Origin: Candidatus Cloacimonadales bacterium
GTDB taxonomy: Bacteria > Cloacimonadota > Cloacimonadia > Cloacimonadales > DAONDQ01
Assembly: GCA_963662275.1 (NCBI GenBank)
Contig: OY759316.1
Coordinates: forward strand, 2,406,177 to 2,470,176
Reading direction: 5' to 3'
DNA: 64,000 nt
Shown: piece after piece, positions 2,626 to 57,251 of the stretch
Layout of the letters: each line of letters opens with the position of its first letter
How positions within the stretch are numbered: the first letter of the stretch is position 1
Made by a program: the position numbers and the translations under genes
The notes under the pieces: generated by a model
What the model was told of the DNA's origin: nothing
The model's input: the letters and a program-made list of their open reading frames with translations, nothing else
The model's database searches: none

Positions 2626-3117
2626 TTAATAAAAATAAATAATGATTTCAAGTTTCGTAGGCTTACCTTTTTCAGATTTCAGATGCATCACATCTGAATT
2701 CTTTTTGATATTGGGTAATCCAAGACCTGCGCCAAATCCCATTTCTCTCACTAATTCATCTGCTGTAGAAAAACCAGGTGTCATCGCCTGGTCAATATCC
2801 TCAATACCCGGACCGGTATCATTAAAAGTAACATAAACAAATTCCGGATATATGTAACTCTTCATCGTCCCACCCACTGAATGAGCAGCAACATTAATCT
2901 CTGCTTCATAGGCAGCGATAGCGATTCGACGTAAAATTTCGGGGTTTACACCAATCCGTTTGAGAACATTCTTCAATTCCGCAGAACCCTTGCCCGCATT
3001 CGTGAAATCCTTTTCAGCAATTTCAAAATTCAGGCTCATCTCCGGTTCGGGAGCGTGCATAAAGAAAGTTCTTGCTTCTTCCTGGTGTTCTTCCTTGATA
3101 TTCCAGTATTCTGCCAT
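2626..3117 (-). CDS. GHKL/HATPase_c protein, anti-sigma-factor-type Ser/Thr kinase-like
   Basis: 163 aa. ATP-lid boxes FNDTGPGIEDI and GFGAGLGLPNIKK, as in SpoIIAB/RsbW-like ATPases. Confidence 0.7.
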   Translation of the reverse strand: MAEYWNIKEEHQEEARTFFMHAPEPEMSLNFEIAEKDFTNAGKGSAELKNVLKRIGVNPEILRRIAIAAYEAEINVAAHSVGGTMKSYIYPEFVYVTFNDTGPGIEDIDQAMTPGFSTADELVREMGFGAGLGLPNIKKNSDVMHLKSEKGKPTKLEIIIYFY

Positions 3118-3124
3118 ATACTAA

Positions 3125-3472
3125 CTAAATCTTACAGCTTCTTAAACCGGAATTATAAAGAAGACCACTGGAACGATACATGGTCATCTTCGTAGAAATG
3201 AGCGGTAAATCTCTTTCTTCAGCCATTTGAATCAATTCATCCGGAGGTATTTTACCACGTACGAAAACAACTGCCAGTAAATCGATCATATCCGCCAAAC
3301 GAATGACTTGTGGATTTGTTAAACCCGTTAACAGCAAAGTTGCTTCCTTCGTACACATCAGTATATCGCTTATCAAATCAGAACTGAAAGCGCAGGGAAT
3401 TTCCTTATCCAAATTCACATTTGTTGAAAGAACTTCACCCTCTAACAGCTCAACCAGTTCGCTGAGTTTCAT
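3125..3472 (-). CDS. DRTGG-domain protein
   Basis: The ORF track gives 3125..3550. I prefer the internal ATG at 3472 (MKLSELVELLEGEV...) because the upstream 26 codons are low-complexity leader. LLLTGLTNPQVIRLA...DLPLIS matches the DRTGG pattern. Confidence 0.55.
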   Translation of the reverse strand: MKLSELVELLEGEVLSTNVNLDKEIPCAFSSDLISDILMCTKEATLLLTGLTNPQVIRLADMIDLLAVVFVRGKIPPDELIQMAEERDLPLISTKMTMYRSSGLLYNSGLRSCKI

Positions 3473-3554
3473 ACACAATCCTTTTTTTGTATTTGTTTTA
3501 TGCACGAGATTCGGTTTGAAACAAATCGTCAAGGATTTTCGATGTTGCATCTAT

Positions 3555-3834
3555 CGTAGCGCTTACTTCAGGAGGTATTATTCGTAGCGCCTACTTCAGG
3601 AGGTATTATTCGTAGCGCCTACTTCAGGAGGTATTATTCGTAGCGCCTACTTCAGGAGGTATTATTCGTAGCGCCTACTTCAGGAGGTATTATTCGTAGC
3701 GCCTACTTCAGGAGGTATTATTCGTAGCGCCTACTTCAGGAGGTATTATTCGTAGCGCTTACTTCAGGAGGTATTATTCGTAGCGCCTACTTCAGGAGGT
3801 ATTATTCGTAGCGCCTACTTCAGGAGGTATTGTT
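3555..3834 (+). repeat. 10 contiguous head-to-tail copies of a 28-bp REP unit
   Basis: The unit is CGTAGCGC(C/T)TACTTCAGGAGGTATTATT. Copies start at 3555, 3583, 3611, 3639, 3667, 3695, 3723, 3751, 3779 and 3807. Copies 1 and 8 share the T variant, and the last copy ends in TTGTT. There are no spacers. Confidence 0.95.
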
Positions 3835-3858
3835 GTTTGTTAACGTACGATCGATATT

Positions 3859-3879
3859 ACCTCCTAAAGTAAGCGCTAC
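3859..3879 (-). repeat. Inverted REP copy (GTAGCGCTTACTTTAGGAGGT on the minus strand), 8 nt downstream of the RAYT stop
   Basis: The plus strand reads ACCTCCTAAAGTAAGCGCTAC. With the last unit of the tandem array it forms an imperfect inverted pair. Confidence 0.85.
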
Positions 3880-3886
3880 ATCGTCG

Positions 3887-4549
3887 TTACGATAAACTCT
3901 GCAGTAAATACGTAAACTCTTCCACTACCCAAGTCCACGTCCACATTTTGGGTTGATCAGCCAGTCCCGCTTTAACAGGATTCATAACGATATACTGAAC
4001 AATCCTATTCAACTCATCTTCATTTCTTACATAGTGGTCATAGTATTCTCTTTGCCACAATTTCCCTGCTCTATTCAGCTCTAAATTAATAAATCTGGAG
4101 CTTCGCCCTTTGATTAAATTCATAATCGTAGCAATTGAATTATACTCTCCTGCATCATTAGCAAGTGGTACGAAAAGGAAATGAACGTGATTAGGCAAGA
4201 TTGTGAAAGCTAATAGATCATATAATTGCTTATCATGGTAATGCAATTCATCAGCAACCAGTTGAGAACATTTAGGAAGTTGAAGTACGTTATCCGGATG
4301 CTGCAATCTGTCATAGTAGTTATCATGAATGGCAAATAGCTTTTTTTTGATTATCATCTCGTTCTCAGCATTTTTAGGCATATTTTTGTATGAATGATAC
4401 AACTCAGCTTCTTTAAGCTTAATATGGTCGAAATACTCTTTAGGCATTGATAAATTAAGTCTGAAGGTAATAAATATTGGCTTGTCTGTTGGTTGTAAAT
4501 GCGGAAGTCTTCTTCGATGAAAGTGCTGATATTGATTAGATGGCTGCAT
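3887..4549 (-). CDS. rayT: REP-associated tyrosine transposase (RAYT; IS200/IS605-like Y1 HUH enzyme)
   Basis: 220 aa. RRRLPH N-terminal motif, HUH motif NHVHFLF, and catalytic Tyr region LWQREYYDHYVRNEDE. It is a single ORF flanked on both sides by inverted GTAG-headed repeats, not by IS ends. Confidence 0.85.
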   Translation of the reverse strand: MQPSNQYQHFHRRRLPHLQPTDKPIFITFRLNLSMPKEYFDHIKLKEAELYHSYKNMPKNAENEMIIKKKLFAIHDNYYDRLQHPDNVLQLPKCSQLVADELHYHDKQLYDLLAFTILPNHVHFLFVPLANDAGEYNSIATIMNLIKGRSSRFINLELNRAGKLWQREYYDHYVRNEDELNRIVQYIVMNPVKAGLADQPKMWTWTWVVEEFTYLLQSLS

Positions 4550-4610
4550 TATCCCTCCATATTCTAATATTTAAATCTATTTATTCTCCTGAATTTAGTC
4601 AAGCAGTATT

Positions 4611-4733
4611 GTAGCGCTTACTTTAGGAGGTTGTAGCGCTTACTTTAGGAGGTCTTATTCTCAATCGTACGGTAAAAAAACATAGCCTCCTAAAGTAAGC
4701 GCTACGAATATTACCTCCTAAAGTAGGCGCTAC
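4611..4733. repeat. REP cluster (two direct plus two inverted copies; BIME-like)
   Basis: GTAGCGCTTACTTTAGGAGGT at 4611-4631 and 4633-4653. Inverted copies lie at 4685-4705 (GCCTCCTAAAGTAAGCGCTAC) and 4713-4733 (ACCTCCTAAAGTAGGCGCTAC). Confidence 0.85.
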
Positions 4734-4756
4734 GGTCGGTGCTACGGTCAGCGCTG

Positions 4757-4788
4757 CAAAAAAAGGGCTACCCGACTGGGCAACCCTT
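4757..4788 (-). terminator. Rho-independent terminator of the 4812..6398 gene
   Basis: The minus strand reads AAGGGTTGCCC-AGTC-GGGTAGCCCTTTTTTTG. This is a 10-bp stem (two G-U pairs) followed by a T7 run, about 25 nt after the stop codon. Confidence 0.6.
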
Positions 4789-4811
4789 GGTGTATAGTCT
4801 TAATTACGACG

Positions 4812-6398
4812 TTACTTCATCAGTATAACTTTCTTAGTTGCCAGGTAATCTGCAGTTTGCAGTCGATAGAAATAAACACCGCTTGAAACATGCTTACCAT
4901 TATTATCAGAGCCATCCCAAGTGCAGGTGTATGTTCCACCAACAGATTTACTGGTGTTTTCAAGAGTTCTGACTTTCTGTCCCTTCAAATTATAGACTTC
5001 AAGCTGCACATTTCCGGCAGACTTTAAATCATACGTAATCATGGTCGGTGTTTTAAATGGATTTGGGTACGCATTATACAGCATAGTTTCATGTACAACC
5101 ATTGGTGGCGTACTTGGACTGTCTATATTTACCAATACCGGTCCAAACATCTGGTTCGTACCATCTAAATCGACACTTTCCAACCAATAGTAGTATTGCG
5201 AATTGGTCTCTACTGTTTCATCCATATACGAATATGCTTGCGTTTGGGAAGTATTCGTTGCTCCAATAGCAGAGAAATTGACCATCTGTGCCAAACTGGC
5301 AATATTGCTCCCTCCACGATAGATATTGAACCCAAGAACATTCGTTTCAGATTGTGTTATCCATTTGATATTGCATAGGTTGTTGTCCGTTTGAAAAGCT
5401 GTGAAAGAGGAGAGTTCAACGGGACATTCAAGACCATGAATAGCAGGACTGTTTATTATTATCGTACCCCCAGGATCTGGAGGACCTGGTACATAAATGA
5501 CTGTTTGAGGAATTGATGATGATGTAAATATGACATTATACAAATCTTCCCAAAAAGCTCTCCATTGCTCCCAGCCCGGATCATTATAATGTTCATAAAT
5601 ATATTGAGAGAGCTCATATTCTTCGTAAATAACTAATGCAAAATCGGCATAAGGGTTTGCAATCACCATTACCTGCAAATGCATAAATACACAAACACCT
5701 ATTTTCTCGCCACTACCCTTGAGTGGAGGTTCATAATTTGTGTAATTACCTATGTCAAAGAACAAGTTATTTTCGCTGAACTTTAAAACAGTTCTATCAA
5801 AAGCAATAGCAGTGATACCATTAATCAAGTTAGGAGGGCAACATGATTCATTTTCGTTTGATGATTCTAGTTGCCAGTCACTGCCAAAATAATTGACAGC
5901 AAAAATAATGGATATAGAATTACCAGTAATCTGATAAACAATGATTTGATCTCCATTTTGGTTCAAGTCAAAAATTCCAGGATTATCTCCATAATTATCA
6001 ACTTCGGACCAGGCATGCTTAAACAATGTGTCATTTGCACAATATCCTTCAGGAAAATTTAACATTATTGGATGATATTTGAGAATTGAACCCGAAGGAA
6101 TACTTTCTGGAATAATGATTTTCACAGTTCCCTCATGACTAGTTTTATCATTAAATGTCCCATCGCTTTTAATGCCTCGATCGGTAAAATAAATTTCTGT
6201 CCCTTGAGATAATGGTGCAACATTCATGAAGGCAAATACTAATACATCATTTGGAGTATGATTCATATTAACTATTACAATATCCATCGGCTGTAAAACA
6301 GTCTGAGCGTGCAACGCAATAAACGACGCGAAAAAAAGTAGGATTAAAGATAGAAGTAATACGTGATTAAATGAGTGGATGAGTAGCTTTTTCTTCAT
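4812..6398 (-). CDS. Secreted protein with pre-CTD module and T9SS-type C-terminal sorting domain
   Basis: 528 aa. Signal peptide (MKKKLLIHSFNHVLLLSLILLFFASFIALHA) and GGGAGG RBS. It contains the PVELSSFTA...SETN..GFNIYR module. The C-terminus is YPNPF...VYNLKGQKV...WDGSDNNG..VSSGVYFYRL...KKVILMK. Confidence 0.8.
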   Translation of the reverse strand: MKKKLLIHSFNHVLLLSLILLFFASFIALHAQTVLQPMDIVIVNMNHTPNDVLVFAFMNVAPLSQGTEIYFTDRGIKSDGTFNDKTSHEGTVKIIIPESIPSGSILKYHPIMLNFPEGYCANDTLFKHAWSEVDNYGDNPGIFDLNQNGDQIIVYQITGNSISIIFAVNYFGSDWQLESSNENESCCPPNLINGITAIAFDRTVLKFSENNLFFDIGNYTNYEPPLKGSGEKIGVCVFMHLQVMVIANPYADFALVIYEEYELSQYIYEHYNDPGWEQWRAFWEDLYNVIFTSSSIPQTVIYVPGPPDPGGTIIINSPAIHGLECPVELSSFTAFQTDNNLCNIKWITQSETNVLGFNIYRGGSNIASLAQMVNFSAIGATNTSQTQAYSYMDETVETNSQYYYWLESVDLDGTNQMFGPVLVNIDSPSTPPMVVHETMLYNAYPNPFKTPTMITYDLKSAGNVQLEVYNLKGQKVRTLENTSKSVGGTYTCTWDGSDNNGKHVSSGVYFYRLQTADYLATKKVILMK

Positions 6399-6531
6399 TT
6401 TTCCTCCCTATTTATTTTTAACATTCTATACGCAGACACAATACAATAAATAGTTTCTTATATTGTTAAGGTTTTATTATCTAGGCAACTTTCAGGTATT
6501 GATGCAGATATTGGTAACATTCATTGTGGAT

Positions 6532-6904
6532 GTAAGATGTAAGACGGAAGATGGAAAATGGAAGATTTGCAGAGAAGACAACAGAGGCATAGTACTGAAC
6601 CTTTATTTTTGAAAAGTTGTCTTTAGACGGTTCTATGTAATCTTTAAAGGACGTATGCAGCAATGGATGTTAGGGGCTAGTTGTTACAACATTGGAATGT
6701 ATCTTATCCCACAGCTCACGCAGTGGGCTATCATCTTTCATAGTATGTGTTCAAATCCATCTTTCATTCTGCCAGTTCTGTCACTTTTAGTTTTTAGTTA
6801 CTAGTTTTTAGTTTCTGCGGTCTTCCATTTCCCCCCCATTCGTAATTCGTAATTGATTTCTCCCCACTACCAATTTTTAATTTTTAATTTTTAATTCTTA
6901 ATTT
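6532..6904. repeat. Cluster of degenerate 7-bp tandem arrays ('stutter' DNA)
   Basis: 6532-6566: GTAAGAT GTAAGAC GGAAGAT GGAAAAT GGAAGAT. 6785-6815: TTTTAGT x4, degenerate. 6840-6854: CGTAATT x2. 6872-6904: AATTTTT x3, then AATTCTT AATTT, running into the stop codon of 6903..7352. Confidence 0.85.
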
Positions 6905-7407: not shown

Positions 7408-7490
7408 GGGAGAGCTAGTTCTGTTCTGTTCTTGTTCTGCTCTTGTTCTGTTCTTGTTCTGCTCTGAGCTAGCACCTAACACCTAGAACC
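7408..7490 (+). repeat. Left arm of an imperfect inverted repeat (contains a 22-bp x2 internal duplication)
   Basis: GGGAGAGCTAGTTCTG, then (TTCTGTTCTTGTTCTGCTCTTG)x2-like, then AGCTAGCACCTAACACCTAGAACC. Its reverse complement matches 7971-8027. Confidence 0.75.
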
Positions 7491-7681: not shown

Positions 7682-7725
7682 TACCGTAATGCTACCGTAT
7701 TGCTACCGTATTGCTACCGTAATGC
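7682..7725. repeat. 11-bp tandem repeat x4 (TACCGTA(A/T)TGC)
   Basis: Units lie at 7682, 7693, 7704 and 7715. An inverted copy, ATTACGGTA at 7659-7667, pairs with 7682-7690. Confidence 0.9.
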
Positions 7726-7866
7726 TCTTATGGTGAAAAATGCCATTTGGCTGGAAGCATATTCGCAAGCTTCTAATTCGATTTGGAAGACTTCGCTATA
7801 GAAGGTAACCGCACGGTTCATATCGCTGACTGGGATTTCAATAAAACTGAAACGAAGAGTCTGCAT
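7714..7866 (-). pseudogene. Glyoxalase/VOC-family gene fragment (N-terminal ~45 codons only)
   Basis: Own translation gives MQTLRFSFIEIPVSDMNRAVTFYSEVFQIELEACEYASSQMAFFTIRALR*. The FIEIPVSDMNRAVTFYSEVF block is a typical VOC N-terminus. The frame ends inside the 11-bp repeat array, whereas family members are about 120 aa. Confidence 0.5.
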
Positions 7867-15475: not shown

Positions 15476-15612
15476 ATGAAAGCTAAGAGTTTGGAGTTCA
15501 AATGCCCTAAACAAATTATCATTGAATACCTGATTAAAAGGGCATTCGGACTTCAAACCCGACCTTTCATCATCGGTAGCGAAAACCTGTTTTCAGGGAA
15601 GTTCAAAACCGA
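15476..15612 (+). repeat. Intergenic repeat family F, copy a
   Basis: It starts ATGAAAGCTAAGAG, has a 15-bp stem (15493-15507 with 15540-15554), and ends TCGGTAGCGAAAACCTGTTTTCAGGGAAGTTCA. Homologous copies lie at 32632, 50028 and 57068(-). Confidence 0.8.
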
Positions 15613-15670
15613 GTAGTAAGCCCTTTCCTAGTAATTAACACAAAACAATATTTGGATAAACAGAGCAGAT

Positions 15671-15694
15671 GGGTTTACTACCGCAAACCCCTAC
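15671..15694 (-). repeat. GTAG-headed hairpin repeat (class C)
   Basis: The minus strand reads GTAGGGGTTTGCGGTAGTAAACCC (GGGTTT/AAACCC stem). The same element occurs at 56614(+) and 56666-56689(-). Confidence 0.75.
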
Positions 15695-16055
15695 GTAGTC
15701 CTCGTGGCATGTTGATCTCGACGAATGATATTTAACATATTTAACATAATAAGCATTTCCCATCATAGGCATGATTGGATATGCTGTTGAACAAGCTCAA
15801 GTAGCAGGGTGATTTTGAATATGTATTTGGAAATTGCTTTTTGAAGATTTCTTGGGTTGAATTGGATTTTTACAATTTTAGCAGAGTCTTTTACCAATGG
15901 AAGAGATGATTTTCTTTTCAGAAGTTATCAAATCACTTTGAGATCAGACTTTTTGTGTATGGGCTGATATTGTTTTCAAGTATTTTAGCAAATTGCCTGT
16001 AATATTTCGGTTGTTTCTATAATTTAGGCAAGACAATCCCGTCGGTAAAATTAAC

Positions 16056-30549: not shown

Positions 30550-30694
30550 TATAACTCCATATTATTTATTAGTTTTGGTGTCGTTAATTTTATAGTTTCG
30601 TACACAATATATATACTACGACACGCAGTGTCTAAAACTATATTACTACATTTATGTCAATATATTTAATGTTAATCTAATTCATGTAATAAAG

Positions 30695-32555
30695 GAGACT
30701 GTTCAAAATTAACCTCCATTTTACGCAGCCTTATTGGTAGTGACAGAGAAAAAGTGGTCTAAGTGCGACCAATCCACATTTTCTTGACATATGCGGGAGA
30801 TATTTAAACTTGCTAAAAGTGATTCCTGACGCATGATTGGTTGACCTTTATCGACCAGTTCTTTGAACCAAAGCGAAAACACAAGGTTGCGGGTGGTTTC
30901 TTCAGATTTTAGTCCAAATCTACCGGATGTCACCTTCTTGATTTTGCGGTTCCAGCGTTCAGAGACATTGGAAGTCAAACCTTTGCTGAGGTGTCTCCAA
31001 TCACTAATGATATTGCTTTTGATGTATTCGGCGGCGGTTGGGGGAGTAATAGCTGTCAGGCTTGCGATACCCTTTTTCCTTCCGCCCGCCGTTTCTCTTC
31101 GGAAAGCTTTCATAATCCTCTTCTTAAAGAACTTGTCCCTGTCTTCAGGGAGATGACATTGACTGATTCTTTTGAAGAGATTTCGTATCTTATGGAACTT
31201 ACAGAGTTGGTAATGGACTTTTGGAAACACTGTTTTTCTTGCAACTGCTAACGATTTACTGCCATCACTGACAATCAGGGTTGGATCTTTCCTGTAGAGC
31301 TGTCTGAAGGTTCTGAAACATGCTTCGAATGATTCTTTCTTTGTGTCAGGATACAACTCACAAAACAGAGGGATGTGAGTCACAAAATCAACAATACTGA
31401 TGACATAGTACGGAATACCTTTGATCTTCACATATTTCTCATCAATGCTGATCTTTCCGCTCCACTTACCGATTGAGTTCAGAATCAGGCTCTGCAGGTC
31501 AGCGATTTCATGCCAGAGATTTGAGACTGTAGCTTTACAGGTGTTGAGCAGCAAAGCTATCGTCTCGAAGTTCATACCGCTTCCAACCAGGTAATGTACC
31601 AGCAGACACAGGTTCTTGCGTTCCAGACTATGGAACGGCTTTGCATCGGCGGTTCTATGGGATGTATTGCCTTTAGCAGTCTTCATTTGTTCCAGGAGTC
31701 TGTCACAGATAACAGGTGTATTCTGCTGACCGGCAAGCAGTTTCAGCAGATGTACAGCATCACCGCCTACTGTCTTTTTCAGAAGAAGCTTCTGAGCTTG
31801 CTTAACTACAGACAGAGAATTGACCTGAGAAGCATATTTGCAGAAAGTGGTATAGGACATTTTAAAATCATGATGGCTGATGAACTCCTGATACATGACA
31901 TTTAAAGGTAAAAGCAGGTTATTGATAACAAAATTCTCGATCTGAGGAATACACTCCAGCAGGTCAACTTTCCGGCTTAAATATGCCAGGATATCATGAC
32001 CATGCTGCTCAAACTCTTGCCAGAAATTATGTACATTCCTGCGGTCTGCGTAGTTAAACAGATCAGCTATTTGCTGAAGTGTAAGGAGGTTGTCTCCGCC
32101 TATTCCTACTAATAAGCGTAGAAACGCTATTAAGAACTTGTGGTTTGATGTTGTCTCAGGCAAAGTGAATGAAAATGGTACGTTAATACTTACATGGTAT
32201 TGGTTACTTTCATGACTAACACTTACCGCTTCTTGAATTGGAGTGTTTTTTTGTCATAATATCCTCCCTTTTGTTACCAGGTAACAAATGCCATTGAAGC
32301 TATAGCAAAAAACTTGTAAAGAACTATTTTATATGATTTTAACTACACATTTAGTCAGAAACGGCTTCGAAACATTACTTATAATCGCGTGTTTTTCAAT
32401 TTTAGTCAAAAAGCTTAACTTGTGATTTGGTGTCCTTAGCAGAGCTTATCTGTCAATTCTGGAAGGTATGTTAAATTATGACCGTTTCGACCACTTTTTT
32501 CAACTTGCTACTTTCTAACTTATTGAATATTATGAATAACTTCATGAACAGTCTC
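30695..32555 (-). mobile_element. 1861-bp insertion sequence, copy A (IS6/IS26-like features), with 8-bp target duplication TAATAAAG
   Basis: The termini are GAGACTGTTCA (an 11-bp perfect inverted repeat). TAATAAAG occurs at 30687-30694 and at 32556-32563. Copy A matches copy B, except for a T at 30803 where the equivalent strand of copy B has G at 51913. Confidence 0.9.
30721..32163 (-). CDS. DDE transposase of IS copy A
   Basis: The 480-aa ORF as called begins at a TTG. D/D/E-type blocks are ISIDEKYVKIKGIPYYVISIVD, LIVSDGSKSLAVA and TSNVSERWNRKIKK. The N-terminal part is HTH-like (LTLQQIADLFNYADRRNVHNFW). Confidence 0.8.
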   Translation of the reverse strand: MPETTSNHKFLIAFLRLLVGIGGDNLLTLQQIADLFNYADRRNVHNFWQEFEQHGHDILAYLSRKVDLLECIPQIENFVINNLLLPLNVMYQEFISHHDFKMSYTTFCKYASQVNSLSVVKQAQKLLLKKTVGGDAVHLLKLLAGQQNTPVICDRLLEQMKTAKGNTSHRTADAKPFHSLERKNLCLLVHYLVGSGMNFETIALLLNTCKATVSNLWHEIADLQSLILNSIGKWSGKISIDEKYVKIKGIPYYVISIVDFVTHIPLFCELYPDTKKESFEACFRTFRQLYRKDPTLIVSDGSKSLAVARKTVFPKVHYQLCKFHKIRNLFKRISQCHLPEDRDKFFKKRIMKAFRRETAGGRKKGIASLTAITPPTAAEYIKSNIISDWRHLSKGLTSNVSERWNRKIKKVTSGRFGLKSEETTRNLVFSLWFKELVDKGQPIMRQESLLASLNISRICQENVDWSHLDHFFSVTTNKAA

Positions 32556-32631
32556 TAATAAAGTATGAGTATATTATATCAGCGCATTCAGTCGAACAAC
32601 GGGGTCAATCCTGACACTCTGTGGAAATTAC

Positions 32632-32765
32632 ATGAAAGCTAAGTATCTGGAGTTCATTTGCCCTAGATAAATTTCTATGAAAAAGTAGCCAAAAGGGCAA
32701 GTGGACTTCATGATACGACCTTTCATCCTCGGTAGCGAAAATCCTTTTCAGGGAAGTTCAAACCG
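32632..32765 (+). repeat. Intergenic repeat family F, copy b
   Basis: It starts ATGAAAGCTAAGTATCTGGAGTTCATTTGCCC, has a stem (32649-32663 with 32695-32709), and ends TCGGTAGCGAAAATCCTTTTCAGGGAAGTTCA. Confidence 0.8.
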
Positions 32766-32801: not shown

Positions 32802-32842
32802 ACCGAGACATGACCGAGACATGACCGAGACATGACCGAGAC
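32802..32842. repeat. 11-bp tandem repeat x3.7 (ACCGAGACATG)
   Basis: Units start at 32802, 32813 and 32824, with a partial unit at 32835-32842. Confidence 0.9.
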
Positions 32843-45192: not shown

Positions 45193-48100
45193 ATGAGTAA
45201 TAAATTGATTACAATTCTCTTTCTCTTTTTGGGAATAACAGCTCTTTGTTTTGCACAATCAGTAACTTTAAGTTCACCAGATCAAATAGCTGCAGGTAAT
45301 GCAACTCAAGGTAATGTAAAACAAGTTATCTTCCATTTTCACCTGAACCGGGATAATGTTGGTATCATAAATTTAACAGGAGTTAATTTTACTACCGGTG
45401 GGAATTATCAAGCCAGTGATTTAACCAGGTTTCAATTATGGTTCAGCGGAGCTGATAATATTTCTTCAGCAGTTCAAATCAGCTCTGATATTACCACGAA
45501 CATGGGACCTGGATCGCATACATTCTCCTCATTTTCAACCTTACTTGCTGCAAGTTATACTCGATATTTATTTGTAACAGCAGACATTGCACTCAATGCT
45601 ACCACTTCAAAATATGTGAATGTATCCGGATGGTCAACAAGCAACTTCATTGTTAGTTCTGGTGCAAAATCAGGCACAGCTCCGGCAGGAGGGGCGCAAA
45701 CCATCACTCCTTTTACTACTTTAGCAACAGACTACTTTCGTTCTAATTCAACAATCGGTAACTGGTCGTCTCCAGGATTCTGGCAATCGTCTCACGATAA
45801 TATTACCTGGGCAACTGCAACCTTATCTCCTTCAAGTACAGCGAATACGATTACTGTTCTCAGTGGTCATTCAGTTAATTTCGATACCAGTATTTCCATA
45901 GATCAAACTGTCATCAATGCTGGTGGGCAAGTAATGATAAGTAATGGCACAACACTTACAATTGCCGATGGTTCAGGCACAGATCTGACTGTGAATGGAA
46001 CTCTGAGAAATAATGAGGGAATCATCATTACATCGGGAATCCTTGCTTTTGGTAGCGGAGGTTTATACCAATGTAATTTTGCATCAATAGTAGGGGTAAT
46101 TCCAACTGCTACCTGGAACACAAATTCAACCTGTGAAATTATTGGTTATACTAACTTTTCTGGCATTCAAACCGGGTTAAGCCAGAATTTTGGTAATTTT
46201 AAATGGAATTGTCCAGACCAAACAGCAAACATCACAGCAAATTCAACACTTCTGACAGTGAAAGGGAATTTGGAAATCGCTGCTGGACAATTTCAATTAA
46301 CTGCAACAGGTACTCCTTCACTTGCCTTAGGTGGTGGATTGAATATTTCCGGCGGAACATTGGATATGAGTTCAGGCACTGGAAATGCAGTAATTAATCT
46401 TAAGGGTAATTTTACCATGTCTGGAGGTGTCCTTACTGAAACTGGTTCTGGAGCAGCAAATAATATAAACTTTAGTGGAACAACAGCGCAAGTGATTTCA
46501 ATCACAGGTCTATCAACCATCAGTAATACCATTAATTTTGCAGTAAATAGCAGTGCTATAGCGGAGTTTGAAACAGAATCGACAGTTTTAAATGGTTCAA
46601 TAGGTACTTTTACAGTAAACAGCGGTTCAACATTGATAATCAGGCATGAAAATGGTATTGCATCCACAGGGAACAACTCTGGTTGTATACAAATAACAGG
46701 TACCAGGACATTCAGTTCTACCGCAACATACTCATTCAAAGGTTATGCAAATCAAGCTACTGGAAATGGATTACCAACGACTATCAGCAACTTAATCGTG
46801 AATCATGATGGTGGTGGAGTCACTTTATCCGGTGCATGTACTGTTACGACTGCATTATCATTATATACTGCTCTTTCAATAGATGCAAACACATTGACAC
46901 TCAACGGAACGGTACCAGTTCGTACAGGTGGGATTATTGGTGGAAATTCTTCAAACTTGGTTATTGGTGGAACTGCCTCCTTAACGATACCTGAAATCAA
47001 TTCCGGTTTACAGAATTTGACAATCAATGGTAACGGCGCAATTACTTTGGGAAACTCAGTTACAATTTATAATATCTTTACCCTCGCTTCATCCGGCAAT
47101 GGATATTTGAGTGTGGGGAATTATACTTTAACGATTAACGGAACTGCCGTTTTCAATGCGTTAAGCTATGTAAGTGGAGCAGGCAGTTTTGTATTAGCGA
47201 GTGGAGCTACCCTTCAAACCCCTAATACTTCAGGAATTACATTAAGTGGAACAACAGGAAGCGTTCGAACTACCACGCGTATTTTCAACACAGATTCAAA
47301 TTATTCCTACAATGGTACTTCGGCACAGTTAACCGGAAATGGATTACCGGATACCGTCCATGATCTGACAACCACAAATCTTTATGGAGTTACCATATCT
47401 ACGTCTTGTATTGTAAATGGAACCTTTACTCCTTCCGGTGATTTATTTATAGGAAATAATAGTGTCATTACGGTAATGGGAGCAGCTGTTTTTAATACTT
47501 TATATTATGTTAGTGATGCTTCAAGCAGTGCCAGTACTTTTATTCTATCAAGTGGAGCTACCCTTCAAACAGCACATGCTGCAGGTATTACTTCGAGTGG
47601 TGCAACCGGCAGTGTACGGACAACCGTACGATCTTTCAATTCCAATGCCAATTACACTTATAATGGCACAGTAGCTCAGGTAACAGGTAGCGGATTACCA
47701 GCTTCTGTTTTGAATCTAACTGTCAGTAATGCTGCTGGAGTAACATTATCCGGCTCCTGTGCTGTCAATGGAGTTTTTACACCTTCAACAGGGTATCTAA
47801 ATGTTGGTAATTATTTACTGAATATTAATGGAACAGCCAGATTTAATGCTACAAATTATGTTATCGGTGCTGGTAGTTTTATTTTAGCCAATCATGCTAC
47901 ACTTGAAACAGCGAATGTGAATGGCATTACAACCAGCGGTGGTGGTAGTGTCCAGACAAATACTCGAATATTCAATACAAATGCTAATTATGTTTTTAAT
48001 GGCACGACGGCTCAAGTAACAGGAAATGGGTTACCGGGAACTGTTCGTGATTTGACTGCCAGTAATATTGCAGCGCTTACTTTATCAGGTTCCTGTAATG

Positions 48101-50143: not shown

Positions 50144-50160
50144 AAAAAACCCATTATAAA

Positions 50161-52021
50161 GAGACTGTTCATGAAGTTATTCATAATATTCAATAAGTTA
50201 GAAAGTAGCAAGTTGAAAAAAGTGGTCGAAACGGTCATAATTTAACATACCTTCCAGAATTGACAGATAAGCTCTGCTAAGGACACCAAATCACAAGTTA
50301 AGCTTTTTGACTAAAATTGAAAAACACGCGATTATAAGTAATGTTTCGAAGCCGTTTCTGACTAAATGTGTAGTTAAAATCATATAAAATAGTTCTTTAC
50401 AAGTTTTTTGCTATAGCTTCAATGGCATTTGTTACCTGGTAACAAAAGGGAGGATATTATGACAAAAAAACACTCCAATTCAAGAAGCGGTAAGTGTTAG
50501 TCATGAAAGTAACCAATACCATGTAAGTATTAACGTACCATTTTCATTCACTTTGCCTGAGACAACATCAAACCACAAGTTCTTAATAGCGTTTCTACGC
50601 TTATTAGTAGGAATAGGCGGAGACAACCTCCTTACACTTCAGCAAATAGCTGATCTGTTTAACTACGCAGACCGCAGGAATGTACATAATTTCTGGCAAG
50701 AGTTTGAGCAGCATGGTCATGATATCCTGGCATATTTAAGCCGGAAAGTTGACCTGCTGGAGTGTATTCCTCAGATCGAGAATTTTGTTATCAATAACCT
50801 GCTTTTACCTTTAAATGTCATGTATCAGGAGTTCATCAGCCATCATGATTTTAAAATGTCCTATACCACTTTCTGCAAATATGCTTCTCAGGTCAATTCT
50901 CTGTCTGTAGTTAAGCAAGCTCAGAAGCTTCTTCTGAAAAAGACAGTAGGCGGTGATGCTGTACATCTGCTGAAACTGCTTGCCGGTCAGCAGAATACAC
51001 CTGTTATCTGTGACAGACTCCTGGAACAAATGAAGACTGCTAAAGGCAATACATCCCATAGAACCGCCGATGCAAAGCCGTTCCATAGTCTGGAACGCAA
51101 GAACCTGTGTCTGCTGGTACATTACCTGGTTGGAAGCGGTATGAACTTCGAGACGATAGCTTTGCTGCTCAACACCTGTAAAGCTACAGTCTCAAATCTC
51201 TGGCATGAAATCGCTGACCTGCAGAGCCTGATTCTGAACTCAATCGGTAAGTGGAGCGGAAAGATCAGCATTGATGAGAAATATGTGAAGATCAAAGGTA
51301 TTCCGTACTATGTCATCAGTATTGTTGATTTTGTGACTCACATCCCTCTGTTTTGTGAGTTGTATCCTGACACAAAGAAAGAATCATTCGAAGCATGTTT
51401 CAGAACCTTCAGACAGCTCTACAGGAAAGATCCAACCCTGATTGTCAGTGATGGCAGTAAATCGTTAGCAGTTGCAAGAAAAACAGTGTTTCCAAAAGTC
51501 CATTACCAACTCTGTAAGTTCCATAAGATACGAAATCTCTTCAAAAGAATCAGTCAATGTCATCTCCCTGAAGACAGGGACAAGTTCTTTAAGAAGAGGA
51601 TTATGAAAGCTTTCCGAAGAGAAACGGCGGGCGGAAGGAAAAAGGGTATCGCAAGCCTGACAGCTATTACTCCCCCAACCGCCGCCGAATACATCAAAAG
51701 CAATATCATTAGTGATTGGAGACACCTCAGCAAAGGTTTGACTTCCAATGTCTCTGAACGCTGGAACCGCAAAATCAAGAAGGTGACATCCGGTAGATTT
51801 GGACTAAAATCTGAAGAAACCACCCGCAACCTTGTGTTTTCGCTTTGGTTCAAAGAACTGGTCGATAAAGGTCAACCAATCATGCGTCAGGAATCACTTT
51901 TAGCAAGTTTAAGTATCTCCCGCATATGTCAAGAAAATGTGGATTGGTCGCACTTAGACCACTTTTTCTCTGTCACTACCAATAAGGCTGCGTAAAATGG
52001 AGGTTAATTTTGAACAGTCTC
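50161..52021 (+). mobile_element. 1861-bp insertion sequence, copy B, with 8-bp target duplication ATTATAAA
   Basis: It has the same GAGACTGTTCA termini. ATTATAAA occurs at 50153-50160 and at 52022-52029. It is inverted relative to copy A. Confidence 0.9.
50553..51995 (+). CDS. DDE transposase of IS copy B
   Basis: The 480-aa product is identical to copy A except S for N (ASLSISRIC vs ASLNISRIC). The frame is open back to 50463, with no ATG or GTG before the TTG at 50553. Confidence 0.8.
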   Translation: MPETTSNHKFLIAFLRLLVGIGGDNLLTLQQIADLFNYADRRNVHNFWQEFEQHGHDILAYLSRKVDLLECIPQIENFVINNLLLPLNVMYQEFISHHDFKMSYTTFCKYASQVNSLSVVKQAQKLLLKKTVGGDAVHLLKLLAGQQNTPVICDRLLEQMKTAKGNTSHRTADAKPFHSLERKNLCLLVHYLVGSGMNFETIALLLNTCKATVSNLWHEIADLQSLILNSIGKWSGKISIDEKYVKIKGIPYYVISIVDFVTHIPLFCELYPDTKKESFEACFRTFRQLYRKDPTLIVSDGSKSLAVARKTVFPKVHYQLCKFHKIRNLFKRISQCHLPEDRDKFFKKRIMKAFRRETAGGRKKGIASLTAITPPTAAEYIKSNIISDWRHLSKGLTSNVSERWNRKIKKVTSGRFGLKSEETTRNLVFSLWFKELVDKGQPIMRQESLLASLSISRICQENVDWSHLDHFFSVTTNKAA

Positions 52022-52112
52022 ATTATAAATATATATCTTTTCAGCAACAAACATCTTGACACCACATTACATCTTTGCTAAATCCTGTATTATATCAAAT
52101 TAGGAGGATAAT

Positions 52113-55672: not shown

Positions 55673-56518
55673 ATGAATCTCTGGTTTACTGAAAAGCATA
55701 CAGAATCAAGAGGTCTATCTTTTCGTATTGATAAGACTCTCTATCATGAAAAAAGTCCCTACCAAACCATGGATATTGTGGAAACACCTGATTTTGGAAA
55801 AGTCATGCTTCTTGATGATGTTGTTATGGTTACTGATGTTGATGAATTTGTTTATCACGAGATGATATCCCATGTATCTCTCTATTCCCATCCAAACCCG
55901 AGAAGAGTTCTGATCATTGGCGGTGGTGATGGTGGAACGCTACGTGAAGTGACCAAGCACCCGGAAGTAGAAACAGCCACTTTGGTAGAAATCGATGATA
56001 TGGTCATTCGCGGTGCAAAGCAGTTCTTTCCTCAACTCGCAATTGGTTTTAATTCACCGAAAGCAGAAGTGATTGTAGATGATGGGATCAAGTATATTGC
56101 TGATTGCAAAGAAAAGTATGATATCATATTAATCGATTCCACTGACCCGGTCGGTCCGGCAACAGGTTTATTTCGTAAGGATTTCTACCAGAGTTGTTTT
56201 GATTTACTGAATGATGATGGAATCCTCACAGTACAATCTGAAAGCCCCTATATCCCCCATCTTGTTCCAATTATCAGGGATATGAATATCAATTTGTCTT
56301 CGATATTTCCCAATGTTCATATGTACCTGGCAGCGATTCAAACCTACCAGGCTGGATTATGGTCATTCCAGTTAGCGAGTAAGAAATATCATCCAATTCA
56401 TGATTTTCAGGATGCCTTGTATAAACAACACCAGCTTAATCTGCAGTATTATACGGATGGAATCCATAAAGCCTGTTTTACATTACCAAGATTTGTAGAG
56501 AAGATAATTACCCTGTAG
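55673..56518 (+). CDS. speE: Spermidine synthase
   Basis: 281 aa. MNLWFTEKHT, VLIIGGGDGGTLREV, IDSTDPVGPA. It is coupled to speH. Confidence 0.9.
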   Translation: MNLWFTEKHTESRGLSFRIDKTLYHEKSPYQTMDIVETPDFGKVMLLDDVVMVTDVDEFVYHEMISHVSLYSHPNPRRVLIIGGGDGGTLREVTKHPEVETATLVEIDDMVIRGAKQFFPQLAIGFNSPKAEVIVDDGIKYIADCKEKYDIILIDSTDPVGPATGLFRKDFYQSCFDLLNDDGILTVQSESPYIPHLVPIIRDMNINLSSIFPNVHMYLAAIQTYQAGLWSFQLASKKYHPIHDFQDALYKQHQLNLQYYTDGIHKACFTLPRFVEKIITL

Positions 56519-56613
56519 GGGTCTGCGTCAGCAGACCCATCTGATTTGTAGGTGTCCTCGTCAGCAGACCCATCTGATTTGTAGGGGTCCGCGTCAGCAG
56601 ACCCGTCTGATAT
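56515..56613 (+). repeat. 33-bp tandem repeat x3 of a GTAG-headed hairpin (class B), starting inside the speE stop codon
   Basis: GTAGGGGTCTGCGTCAGCAGACCCATCTGATTT at 56515, with variants at 56548 and 56581. Unit 1 forms the perfect hairpin GGGTCTGC-GTCA-GCAGACCC. Confidence 0.9.
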
Positions 56614-56689
56614 GTAGGGGTTTGCGGTAGTACGCCCTTCCTGTATGCATTTTCACTCCATTCAAGGGTTTACTTCCGCAAACCCCTAC
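56614..56689. repeat. Inverted pair of class C GTAG-headed repeats
   Basis: GTAGGGGTTTGCGGTAGTA lies at 56614, and GGGTTTACTTCCGCAAACCCCTAC lies at 56666-56689. Confidence 0.8.
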
Positions 56690-56700
56690 GATTTCTCTGA

Positions 56701-57030
56701 ACCTGTTACCTGTACGCTGTTAGCTGTCACCTTCTGCAAGTTCTGCTCTGCTAATTTTTAACTTTTAATTGTTAATTTTTAATTCTCATATTTTCCACTG
56801 AAAATATGAGTTGGGTTTCATCTAGGCATCATCTAGGGATCATCTAGGGATCATCTAGACTTTTTTAGATTTTCCTTAGATTTTCTTTAGTTTTTGTTTC
56901 TTTTATGTATTTTTTATCTTCCATGAGACTTATTTGGAAGTTCGAAGTTCGAAGTTGCTTTCTGAGGCATTTTCTTCTGTGCTCTGAACCTGTTAGCTGA
57001 CACCTGAAACCTGGCACCTTCTGCGATATA
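56701..57030. repeat. Second cluster of degenerate 7/11-bp tandem arrays sharing modules with 6532-7500
   Basis: 56753-56787: AATTTTT AACTTTT AATTGTT AATTTTT AATTCTC. 56818-56858: TCATCTAGG(C/G)A x3.7. 56865-56897: TTAGATTTTCC x3, degenerate. 56937-56957: GAAGTTC x3. ACCT-word plus CCTTCTGC modules lie at 56701-56735 and 56985-57025. Confidence 0.85.
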
Positions 57031-57067: not shown

Positions 57068-57251
57068 CTTCTGAACTTCCCTGATAATGATTTTCGCTAC
57101 CGAGAAAGAAAGCTGAGTTCTCCGAGTGAATAGATTTATCTATTTGTATCGAGGAGACGACATTTATTTAAACTTGAGTGTAGTATCGCTTCATTTCGAT
57201 ACAATTTCTCCTTCGTCGAAATCACTCAATGAACCGGCTCTTAGCTTTCAT
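57068..57251 (-). repeat. Intergenic repeat family F, copy c (reverse orientation)
   Basis: The reverse complement starts ATGAAAGCTAAGAGCCGGTTCATTGAGT and ends TCGGTAGCGAAAATCATTATCAGGGAAGTTCAGAAG. Confidence 0.75.

Follow-up and report, generated by a model that had tools for sequence, protein, structure and literature searches.

How REP and REPIN repeats multiply is still an open question (PMC8266576, PMC3333891). In Escherichia coli, the tnpA_REP gene (yafM) is bordered by tandem BIMEs (BIME-2) in an arrangement termed the REPtron (Ton-Hoang et al. 2012, PMC3333891); the BIMEs at one locus are near-identical, and their number is variable and differs between strains. In Pseudomonas fluorescens SBW25, a REPIN cluster lies beside each RAYT gene, and same-orientation tandem arrays of one REP type have been described as well (Bertels & Rainey 2011, PMC3116915). 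Some genomes hold their REPs near the rayt gene, as reported for the RAYTs of marine gammaproteobacteria and Thauera (Nunvar et al. 2010, PMC2817692).

The locus analysed here lies in a 64-kb stretch of Cloacimonadota DNA, referred to below as the window; the assignment to this phylum is given by the neighbouring proteins. It belongs to the known REPtron/REPIN-cluster kind and adds a member from the Cloacimonadota. Read in the orientation of its RAYT gene, which is on the minus strand, the locus opens with a terminator (4788-4763), 12-nt repeats (4757-4734) and arms at 4733-4686. These are followed by a loop of ~33 nt containing CGTACG, the inverted arms 4652-4611 and the RAYT gene, and beyond the gene by one arm (3879-3860), a loop of ~32 nt that also contains CGTACG, and ten inverted arms (3834-3555). 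The features, in order of their coordinates, are as follows:

3476 to 3554, minus strand: upstream region of the neighbouring operon, separating the DRTGG start codon from the array; most of it, ~3476-3545, is also conserved in a relative (TCCTTGACGA...TGCATAAAAC...AAAGGA)
3555 to 3834, plus strand: tandem array of ten 28-bp units, head to tail, each a GTAG-headed arm plus a TATTATTC tail
3808 to 3879, no strand assigned: downstream flanking hairpin (REPIN-like), in which array unit 10 pairs with the lone inverted arm 3860-3879(-)
3887 to 4549, minus strand: RAYT / TnpA_REP gene encoding 220 aa; HUH motif H121-V-H123, catalytic Tyr170
4574 to 4602, minus strand: weak match to a sigma-70-like promoter (TTGACT-17-TAGATT) in the stretch that separates the RAYT start codon from the upstream repeat cluster; such matches in the region are not above those in shuffles
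4611 to 4652, plus strand: two arms repeated head to tail (period 22 nt) that make up the inner half of the hairpin upstream of the gene
4686 to 4733, minus strand: two arms repeated head to tail (period 28 nt, linker TAATATTC) that make up the outer half of the same hairpin
4734 to 4757, minus strand: two degenerate repeats of 12 nt that consist of the head only (GCAGCGCTGACC, GTAGCACCGACC) and adjoin the outermost arm on its 5' side, recognized by sequence inspection
4763 to 4788, minus strand: terminator-like hairpin of the upstream secreted-protein gene, forming the outer boundary of the locus

With the E. coli REPtron, this locus shares a single Y1/HUH RAYT with inverted GTAG-headed flanks, as well as tandem units beside the gene, variable in number and near-identical per locus, for which a local-amplification model exists (PMC3333891). 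However, the E. coli unit is a BIME, that is, a REP plus an inverted REP, each an imperfect GC-rich palindrome, whereas here a single AT-rich arm is repeated head to tail. The hosts also differ, since E. coli belongs to the Proteobacteria and the window to the Cloacimonadota, and the similarity of the RAYT to the E. coli structure 4ER8 is low. The resemblance to SBW25 lies in the hairpin formed by two inverted arms (the REPIN), in same-orientation tandem REP arrays (GI, evenly spaced) and in the clusters next to several RAYT paralogues, each with its own repeat flavour (PMC3116915). In contrast, the REPINs of SBW25 exist as hundreds of dispersed copies, and spacing and flanking sequence form part of the tandem units in that genome, while the units found here are spacerless and confined to the locus within the 64 kb. 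The concentration of repeats around rayt is also a likeness to the marine gammaproteobacterial and Thauera cases, although the repeats spread over up to ~200 kb there (PMC2817692) and over at most 1.2 kb here (64 kb viewed). The locus extends the REPtron type of organization to the Cloacimonadota, with an AT-rich repeat that is not self-palindromic.

When the array was cut at 3555 + 28n, seven of its ten units were CGTAGCGCCTACTTCAGGAGGTATTATT. In units 1 and 8 the variable position (core position 8) is T, unit 10 ends in TTGTT, and the spacer between units is zero. Tandem Repeats Finder (TRF) reported the array at 3554-3831 with period 28, 9.9 copies, 98% matches, 0% indels and a score of 542. 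Both approaches thus agree with the first-pass annotation, which had described ten spacerless 28-bp copies with these same variants and had pointed to AGGAGGT on the plus strand, a motif found in every unit. A CRISPR array was ruled out, as the units abut without spacers. The 20-nt core of the repeat (GTAGCGCYTACTTYAGGAGG) is matched exactly 15 times across the window, where shuffles predict 0.01 matches; every one falls within 3556-4733, and no exact copy was found elsewhere in the 64 kb. A near-match at 48070, with three mismatches, lies inside a 1612-aa ORF and was taken as chance. At core position 14, C is present in ten of ten array units (ACTTCAGG) and T in five of five non-array copies (ACTTTAGG). 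Given that C14 occurs in all ten units and in none of the five other local copies, the array derives from one founder unit and not from repeated insertions. The same difference adds a nuance to the earlier statement that the unit is the GTAG element flanking the RAYT gene in inverted orientation, which otherwise holds. Searched as a pattern, the core gave four isolated matches in unrelated taxa in a species-representative genome collection, approximately the number expected by chance (hand estimate), and zero matches in JGI metagenomes and viral contigs. Considering its near-absence from these collections, the 28-bp repeat appears to be specific to this lineage.

The 28-nt unit falls within the 20-40 nt size of REPs, its GTAG head fits 5' GT(A/G)G, and it is intergenic and non-coding. 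It does not form a REP palindrome of its own, with a predicted fold of -2.4 kcal/mol (z -1.4) for the lone unit and -0.8 kcal/mol (z +0.2) for its complement. Nor does the array consist of BIMEs, since its ten units share one orientation and none contains an inverted partner. Folded as DNA, the downstream pair of arms (3808-3880) reaches -16.6 kcal/mol for the plus strand (z -5.8) and -18.3 kcal/mol for the minus strand (z -6.6), and the minus-strand fold includes both variable positions in one continuous predicted stem. The upstream pairs (4611-4733) reach -41.8 and -39.1 kcal/mol (z -11.3 and -9.9). Inverted arm pairs therefore outfold shuffles by far (z -5.8 to -11.3), as in the two-arm hairpin of a REPIN. 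Since the lone unit has no such fold and the inverted pairs do, the arrayed unit is a single arm of a REPIN-like hairpin rather than a palindrome in itself. The basic repeat is a hairpin of ~72 nt with a 5' foot GTAG and a 3' foot CTAC, one on each side of the gene. An E-value scan of 3000-5000 against Rfam returned only sub-threshold matches to miRNA precursors; these are accounted for by the long hairpins at the locus, and a known RNA family was rejected.

Judged by family models and catalytic residues, the gene at 3887-4549 is a bona fide REP-associated tyrosine transposase, a domesticated type of transposase that acts on repeats of this sort, in agreement with its initial designation as a RAYT gene. 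The protein matches Pfam Y1_Tnp (2.4e-9) and scores above the cut-off of the NCBIfam equivalog model NF047646 (REP_Tyr_transpos; 93.6 bits, cut-off 80), and it fails the IS200 model NF033573 (22.7 bits, cut-off 55). Residues H121, H123 and Y170 (in EYYDH) are invariant in an alignment of relatives, the top PDB match is E. coli TnpA_REP (4ER8, E 3.5e-5, low similarity), and many homologues carry the source name 'REP element-mobilizing transposase RayT'. The exact protein is on record in two contigs, and a 4.38-Mb contig that encodes it also contains two paralogues, only 54% identical. An IS200/IS605 insertion sequence was rejected, given the score under the IS200 cut-off, the lack of a second copy in the window and the low identity of the paralogues.

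The inverted repeats around the RAYT gene comprise inner arms at 3860-3879(-) and 4611-4652(+) and outer arms at 3556-3827(+) and 4686-4733(-). The closest RAYTs with retrievable DNA are P0010 (contig L012), 61% identical over 79% of the query, and P0005 (contig L008), 52% identical. Each of the two has its own tandem hairpin units on its flanks (52 nt, 2.1 and 3.2 copies; 103 nt, 2.5 copies), whose arms align ungapped to the array unit and keep the GT head and CTTYAGG (positions 11-17); the L012 repeat has the core CTTCAGG in common with the window's unit. The GT head and CTTYAGG recur, at the same ungapped spacing, in the repeats flanking RAYTs 52-64% identical to that of the window, while the remainder of the unit, AGGAGG included, is not kept in the repeats of related RAYTs. 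Upstream of the gene for one 54%-identical paralogue from this source genome lies a different repeat, made of GTAG plus a palindrome, which fits the RAYT/REP co-variation described by Nunvar et al. (PMC2817692). With 15 of the 15 core copies flanking the gene and with GT/CTTYAGG common to related RAYT repeats, the 28-bp unit is, as far as sequence can tell, the cognate repeat of the adjacent RAYT, the relationship that had been proposed for it from the outset. The conserved GT head and CTTYAGG suggest a recognition code unlike that of the proteobacterial models. In a check for copy-number polymorphism, the RAYT flanks of relatives were identical between samples.

The closest orthologues share a gene neighbourhood that differs from the one in the window. 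These RAYT orthologues, 61-64% identical (L012/L013 and the P0002 contig), lie upstream of ApbE, GTP cyclohydrolase and M16 peptidase genes, and the gene on the other side is Mfd/TRCF in L012/L013 and a 608-aa gene with no family match on record on the P0002 contig. In the window, the neighbours of the RAYT gene are a type IX secretion-tailed protein and the hydrogenase-like operon. Given these differing neighbours, the RAYT of this lineage occupies another locus than its closest orthologues.

It had been stated in the first-pass annotation that REPs normally occur singly or as inverted BIME pairs. Head-to-tail REP dimers are indeed reported to be rare (PMC3733652), and to that extent the statement stands; as a generality it goes too far, because tandem arrays beside RAYT genes are documented (PMC3116915, PMC2817692, PMC3333891) and were also found in our survey. 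We analysed 80 loci with RAYT homologues from metagenome contigs using TRF, 57 of them with usable flanks, and counted arrays with a period of 15-130 located within 200 bp of the RAYT gene. Arrays of at least two copies were detected at 27 of the 57 loci, of at least three copies at 16 and of at least five copies at 8, one of which (L046) is probably a coding repeat. Arrays of at least three copies occupy 11.8% of the bases up to 400 bp from the RAYT gene versus 0.75% beyond (~16-fold; 51 non-redundant loci), an enrichment that could merely reflect repeats being located there. At L030, L036, L033, L028 and L012, as in the window, 3 to >10 GTAG- or GTGG-headed tandem units directly abut the RAYT gene. 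L030 has 10.8 copies of 37 nt upstream and 5.7 copies of 38 nt downstream, both truncated by contig ends, and at L036 a classical REP of 26 nt, with head and palindrome, is present 10-13 times in one orientation. In those metagenomic RAYT relatives whose repeats were folded, each unit had a hairpin of its own, whereas the window's unit is half a hairpin. Tandem arrays adjoining RAYT genes are common, and the ten-copy array is a fairly ordinary local amplification; what is mildly unusual here is the strict head-to-tail, spacerless repetition of half a hairpin.

On its other side, the array faces an operon encoded on the minus strand, with its start codon at 3475 (not 3550), as backed by gene calls in L002 and relatives. 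It encodes a DRTGG protein, a HATPase, an Fe-hydrogenase-like sensor, a small protein with a weak, sub-threshold match to Hpr_kinase_N, and a PHP protein; for the first gene, neither start codon gave a database record on look-up. In an alignment, ~70-80 bp upstream of the operon start are conserved with relative L094 (hydrogenase-like protein 88% identical), and the homology ends ~10 nt short of the array. None of three relatives (hydrogenase-like protein 88-91% identical) has a RAYT upstream of the operon, which places the REPtron at a lineage-specific synteny break, directly upstream of a conserved leader/promoter region, which it adjoins without replacing. The earlier claim that the array region must contain the operon promoter is not borne out, since the conserved ~70-80 bp separate the array from the start codon at 3475; the array abuts the promoter and need not contain it. 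In the relatives L094-L097 (first ~450 bases), the region upstream of the same operon is AT-rich and contains many TTCCAAT/ATTGGAA motifs. The ends of four independent assemblies all fall inside the divergent upstream gene, no more than ~90 bp apart, and this suggests that another repeat is present there.

That the locus is a REPtron with local amplification of a hairpin arm is very probable. The 280-bp array would represent one 28-nt arm of the downstream hairpin, amplified head to tail in place, and the upstream hairpin, with its 2 + 2 arms, would be an earlier stage of the same process. The initial suggestion of a recent local amplification, either RAYT-mediated or by slippage, is a sensible reading that matches the amplification model for the REPtron (PMC3333891). 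In the mechanism we propose, the RAYT would nick single-stranded DNA beside the GTAG head, a host polymerase would extend the freed 3'-OH, and each cycle would gain one unit through a second nick and transfer of the strand to the first 5'-phosphotyrosine, with ordinary replication slippage altering the copy number afterwards. Strand transfer by TnpA_REP can build tandem copies in vitro, and explicit nick/extend/transfer models have been put forward (PMC3333891); the choice of site by TnpA_REP is guided by the GTAG head (PMC8266576). Taken as a whole, an explanation that combines a REPtron, amplification by the RAYT route followed by slippage, and an array left as a by-product seems to us reasonably probable, whereas on a RAYT-dependent origin of the array, taken separately, we consider the case to be evenly balanced. 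Against the combined explanation, the unit departs from the classical REP, which is a palindrome in itself and dispersed in many copies over the genome: it does not fold alone, and the 64 kb showed no dispersed copy. The array could instead stem from replication slippage alone, or from unequal recombination between sister strands, in which case the RAYT would play no catalytic part; we regard this alternative as possible without favouring it. A hairpin arm would then have been duplicated by chance and subsequently expanded and homogenised by slipped-strand events, perhaps aided by polymerase stalled at the hairpin. The near-perfect array with zero indels is what young slippage arrays look like, other short tandem repeats abound between the genes of the window (periods 7, 11, 22 and 33), and a different GTAG repeat forms a three-copy head-to-tail array with no RAYT nearby. 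Moreover, T and not C precedes GTAG in the 22-nt-period pair 4611-4652, so that the junctions are non-uniform. RAYT-dependent addition is favoured by the tandem repeats of three periods at the locus (28, 22 and 12), all of which include the GTAG head, by the ~16-fold enrichment of arrays near RAYT homologues and by the in vitro strand transfer products, although each of these is compatible with slippage too. If placed 5' of GTAG, the array junction reads C|G, which counts against a RAYT origin, given that known RAYTs cleave C|T or C|A (PMC8266576); as a perfect tandem array has no definable junction, cleavage sites are unreadable from its sequence. GC skew over the 64 kb gave no consistent signal regarding leading and lagging strands. 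We consider it unlikely that the array is a direct footprint of RAYT-catalysed unit addition in a 28-nt register with a C|GTAG junction. Should this be the case, the cleavage specificity would be unlike the C|T and C|A of proteobacterial TnpA_REP, the RAYT would be able to copy a single arm instead of a whole hairpin, and the array of the window, like those of many metagenomic RAYT loci, would be a record left in nature of the mechanism of REP proliferation, as well as a simple substrate for reconstituting it. RAYT loci with clean, young, single-orientation amplifications offer compact natural substrates for the nick-and-extend model.

Two further explanations, in which the array is inflated by the assembler or maintained by selection, were weighed against local amplification at a REPtron. 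It is highly improbable that the true locus has fewer units and that a short tandem repeat was inflated during assembly. The count of ten comes from the main assembly alone: in the Logan short-read assembly ERR12015701, contigs L001 and L002 stop inside the array, one at each edge, and an N-gap lies inside the RAYT-flanking repeats of a related MAG. However, the recovery of both edges in this independent assembly, with matching unit sequences, indicates that the tandem repeat is present there too. In addition, the internal T variant in unit 8 and the distinct first and last units are atypical of a collapsed or looped graph, the 4.38-Mb source contig suggests long reads, and comparable arrays of at least ten copies exist at other RAYT loci. 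Nor is the array readily seen as a selected regulatory element, whether as ten Shine-Dalgarno-like translation sites or as a spacer, promoter or attenuator that acts on the hydrogenase-like operon according to copy number, and we would give this reading hardly any credence. It draws on the AGGAGGT in every unit, on the short distances from the end of the array to the start of the conserved region (~10 nt) and to the TTGACG motif within it (~20 nt), on the lineage-specific arrangement relative to the three relatives that lack a RAYT upstream of the operon, and on the known effects of REP/BIME elements on mRNA stability, termination and supercoiling (PMC3333891). Yet neither strand of the 28-bp unit contains ATG, GTG or TTG, and all six reading frames are interrupted by stops, which also rules out a coding repeat or Shine-Dalgarno-driven small ORFs; the flanking genes, including the operon, are encoded on the minus strand, on which the unit appears as CCTCC; and AGGAGG is unconserved among related repeats. 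Given these three observations, the Shine-Dalgarno idea raised earlier for AGGAGGT is not supported. A scan limited to canonical promoters detected neither a sigma-70-like promoter nor an intrinsic terminator in the array, and the conserved ~70-80 bp can hold the operon's own promoter. We judge the array to be a by-product of RAYT/REP biology and infer that it lacks a regulatory function; a regulatory side effect through RAYT read-through, topology or mRNA stability is conceivable, but nothing here supports it.

Arrays beside RAYT genes break short-read assemblies exactly at such loci. In the public Cloacimonadota MAG GCA_035402645.1 (L010, 3244-3343), a run of N lies exactly in the tandem repeats downstream of the RAYT gene, and gaps in scaffolds appear to arise repeatedly from arrays that flank RAYT genes.

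Other repeats are present in the window. At 56514-56690, a second, unrelated GTAG repeat consists of three head-to-tail 33-bp units (GTAGGGGTCYGCGTCAGCAGACCC plus linker) followed by the inverted pair GTAGGGGTTTGCGG...CCGCAAACCCCTAC; it lies just past the stop codon of a spermidine synthase gene (55673-56518), with no RAYT nearby. A dispersed intergenic repeat, GTAGGGGTTTGCGGWAGTA, occurs at 15676(-), 56614(+) and 56671(-), and an element of ~41 nt (CTTTCATCMTCGGTAGCGAAAA...CAGGGAAGTTCA) is found at three loci, two of them close to GTAGGGGTTTGCGGWAGTA copies; together, the regions with dispersed repeats are 15560-15700, 32720-32760, 56611-56690 and 57072-57112. As these two repeats are scattered, other GTAG-type repeats of this genome are dispersed, unlike the RAYT-flanking one. 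Intergenic, microsatellite-like arrays with an 11-bp period and differing sequences (3.7-4.5 copies, 89-100% matches) are located at 7418-7465, 7682-7726, 32802-32842 and 56818-56858, and 7-bp arrays at 6529-6904 and 56701-56784. Two 1.9-kb copies (30655-32556 and 50160-52061), 99% identical, lie in inverted orientation 17.6 kb apart, and each appears to encode a 480-aa MULE/Mutator-type DDE transposase (ORF/Pfam check on the first copy only). This pair is probably an insertion sequence that brackets a segment with very large repetitive surface-protein genes.
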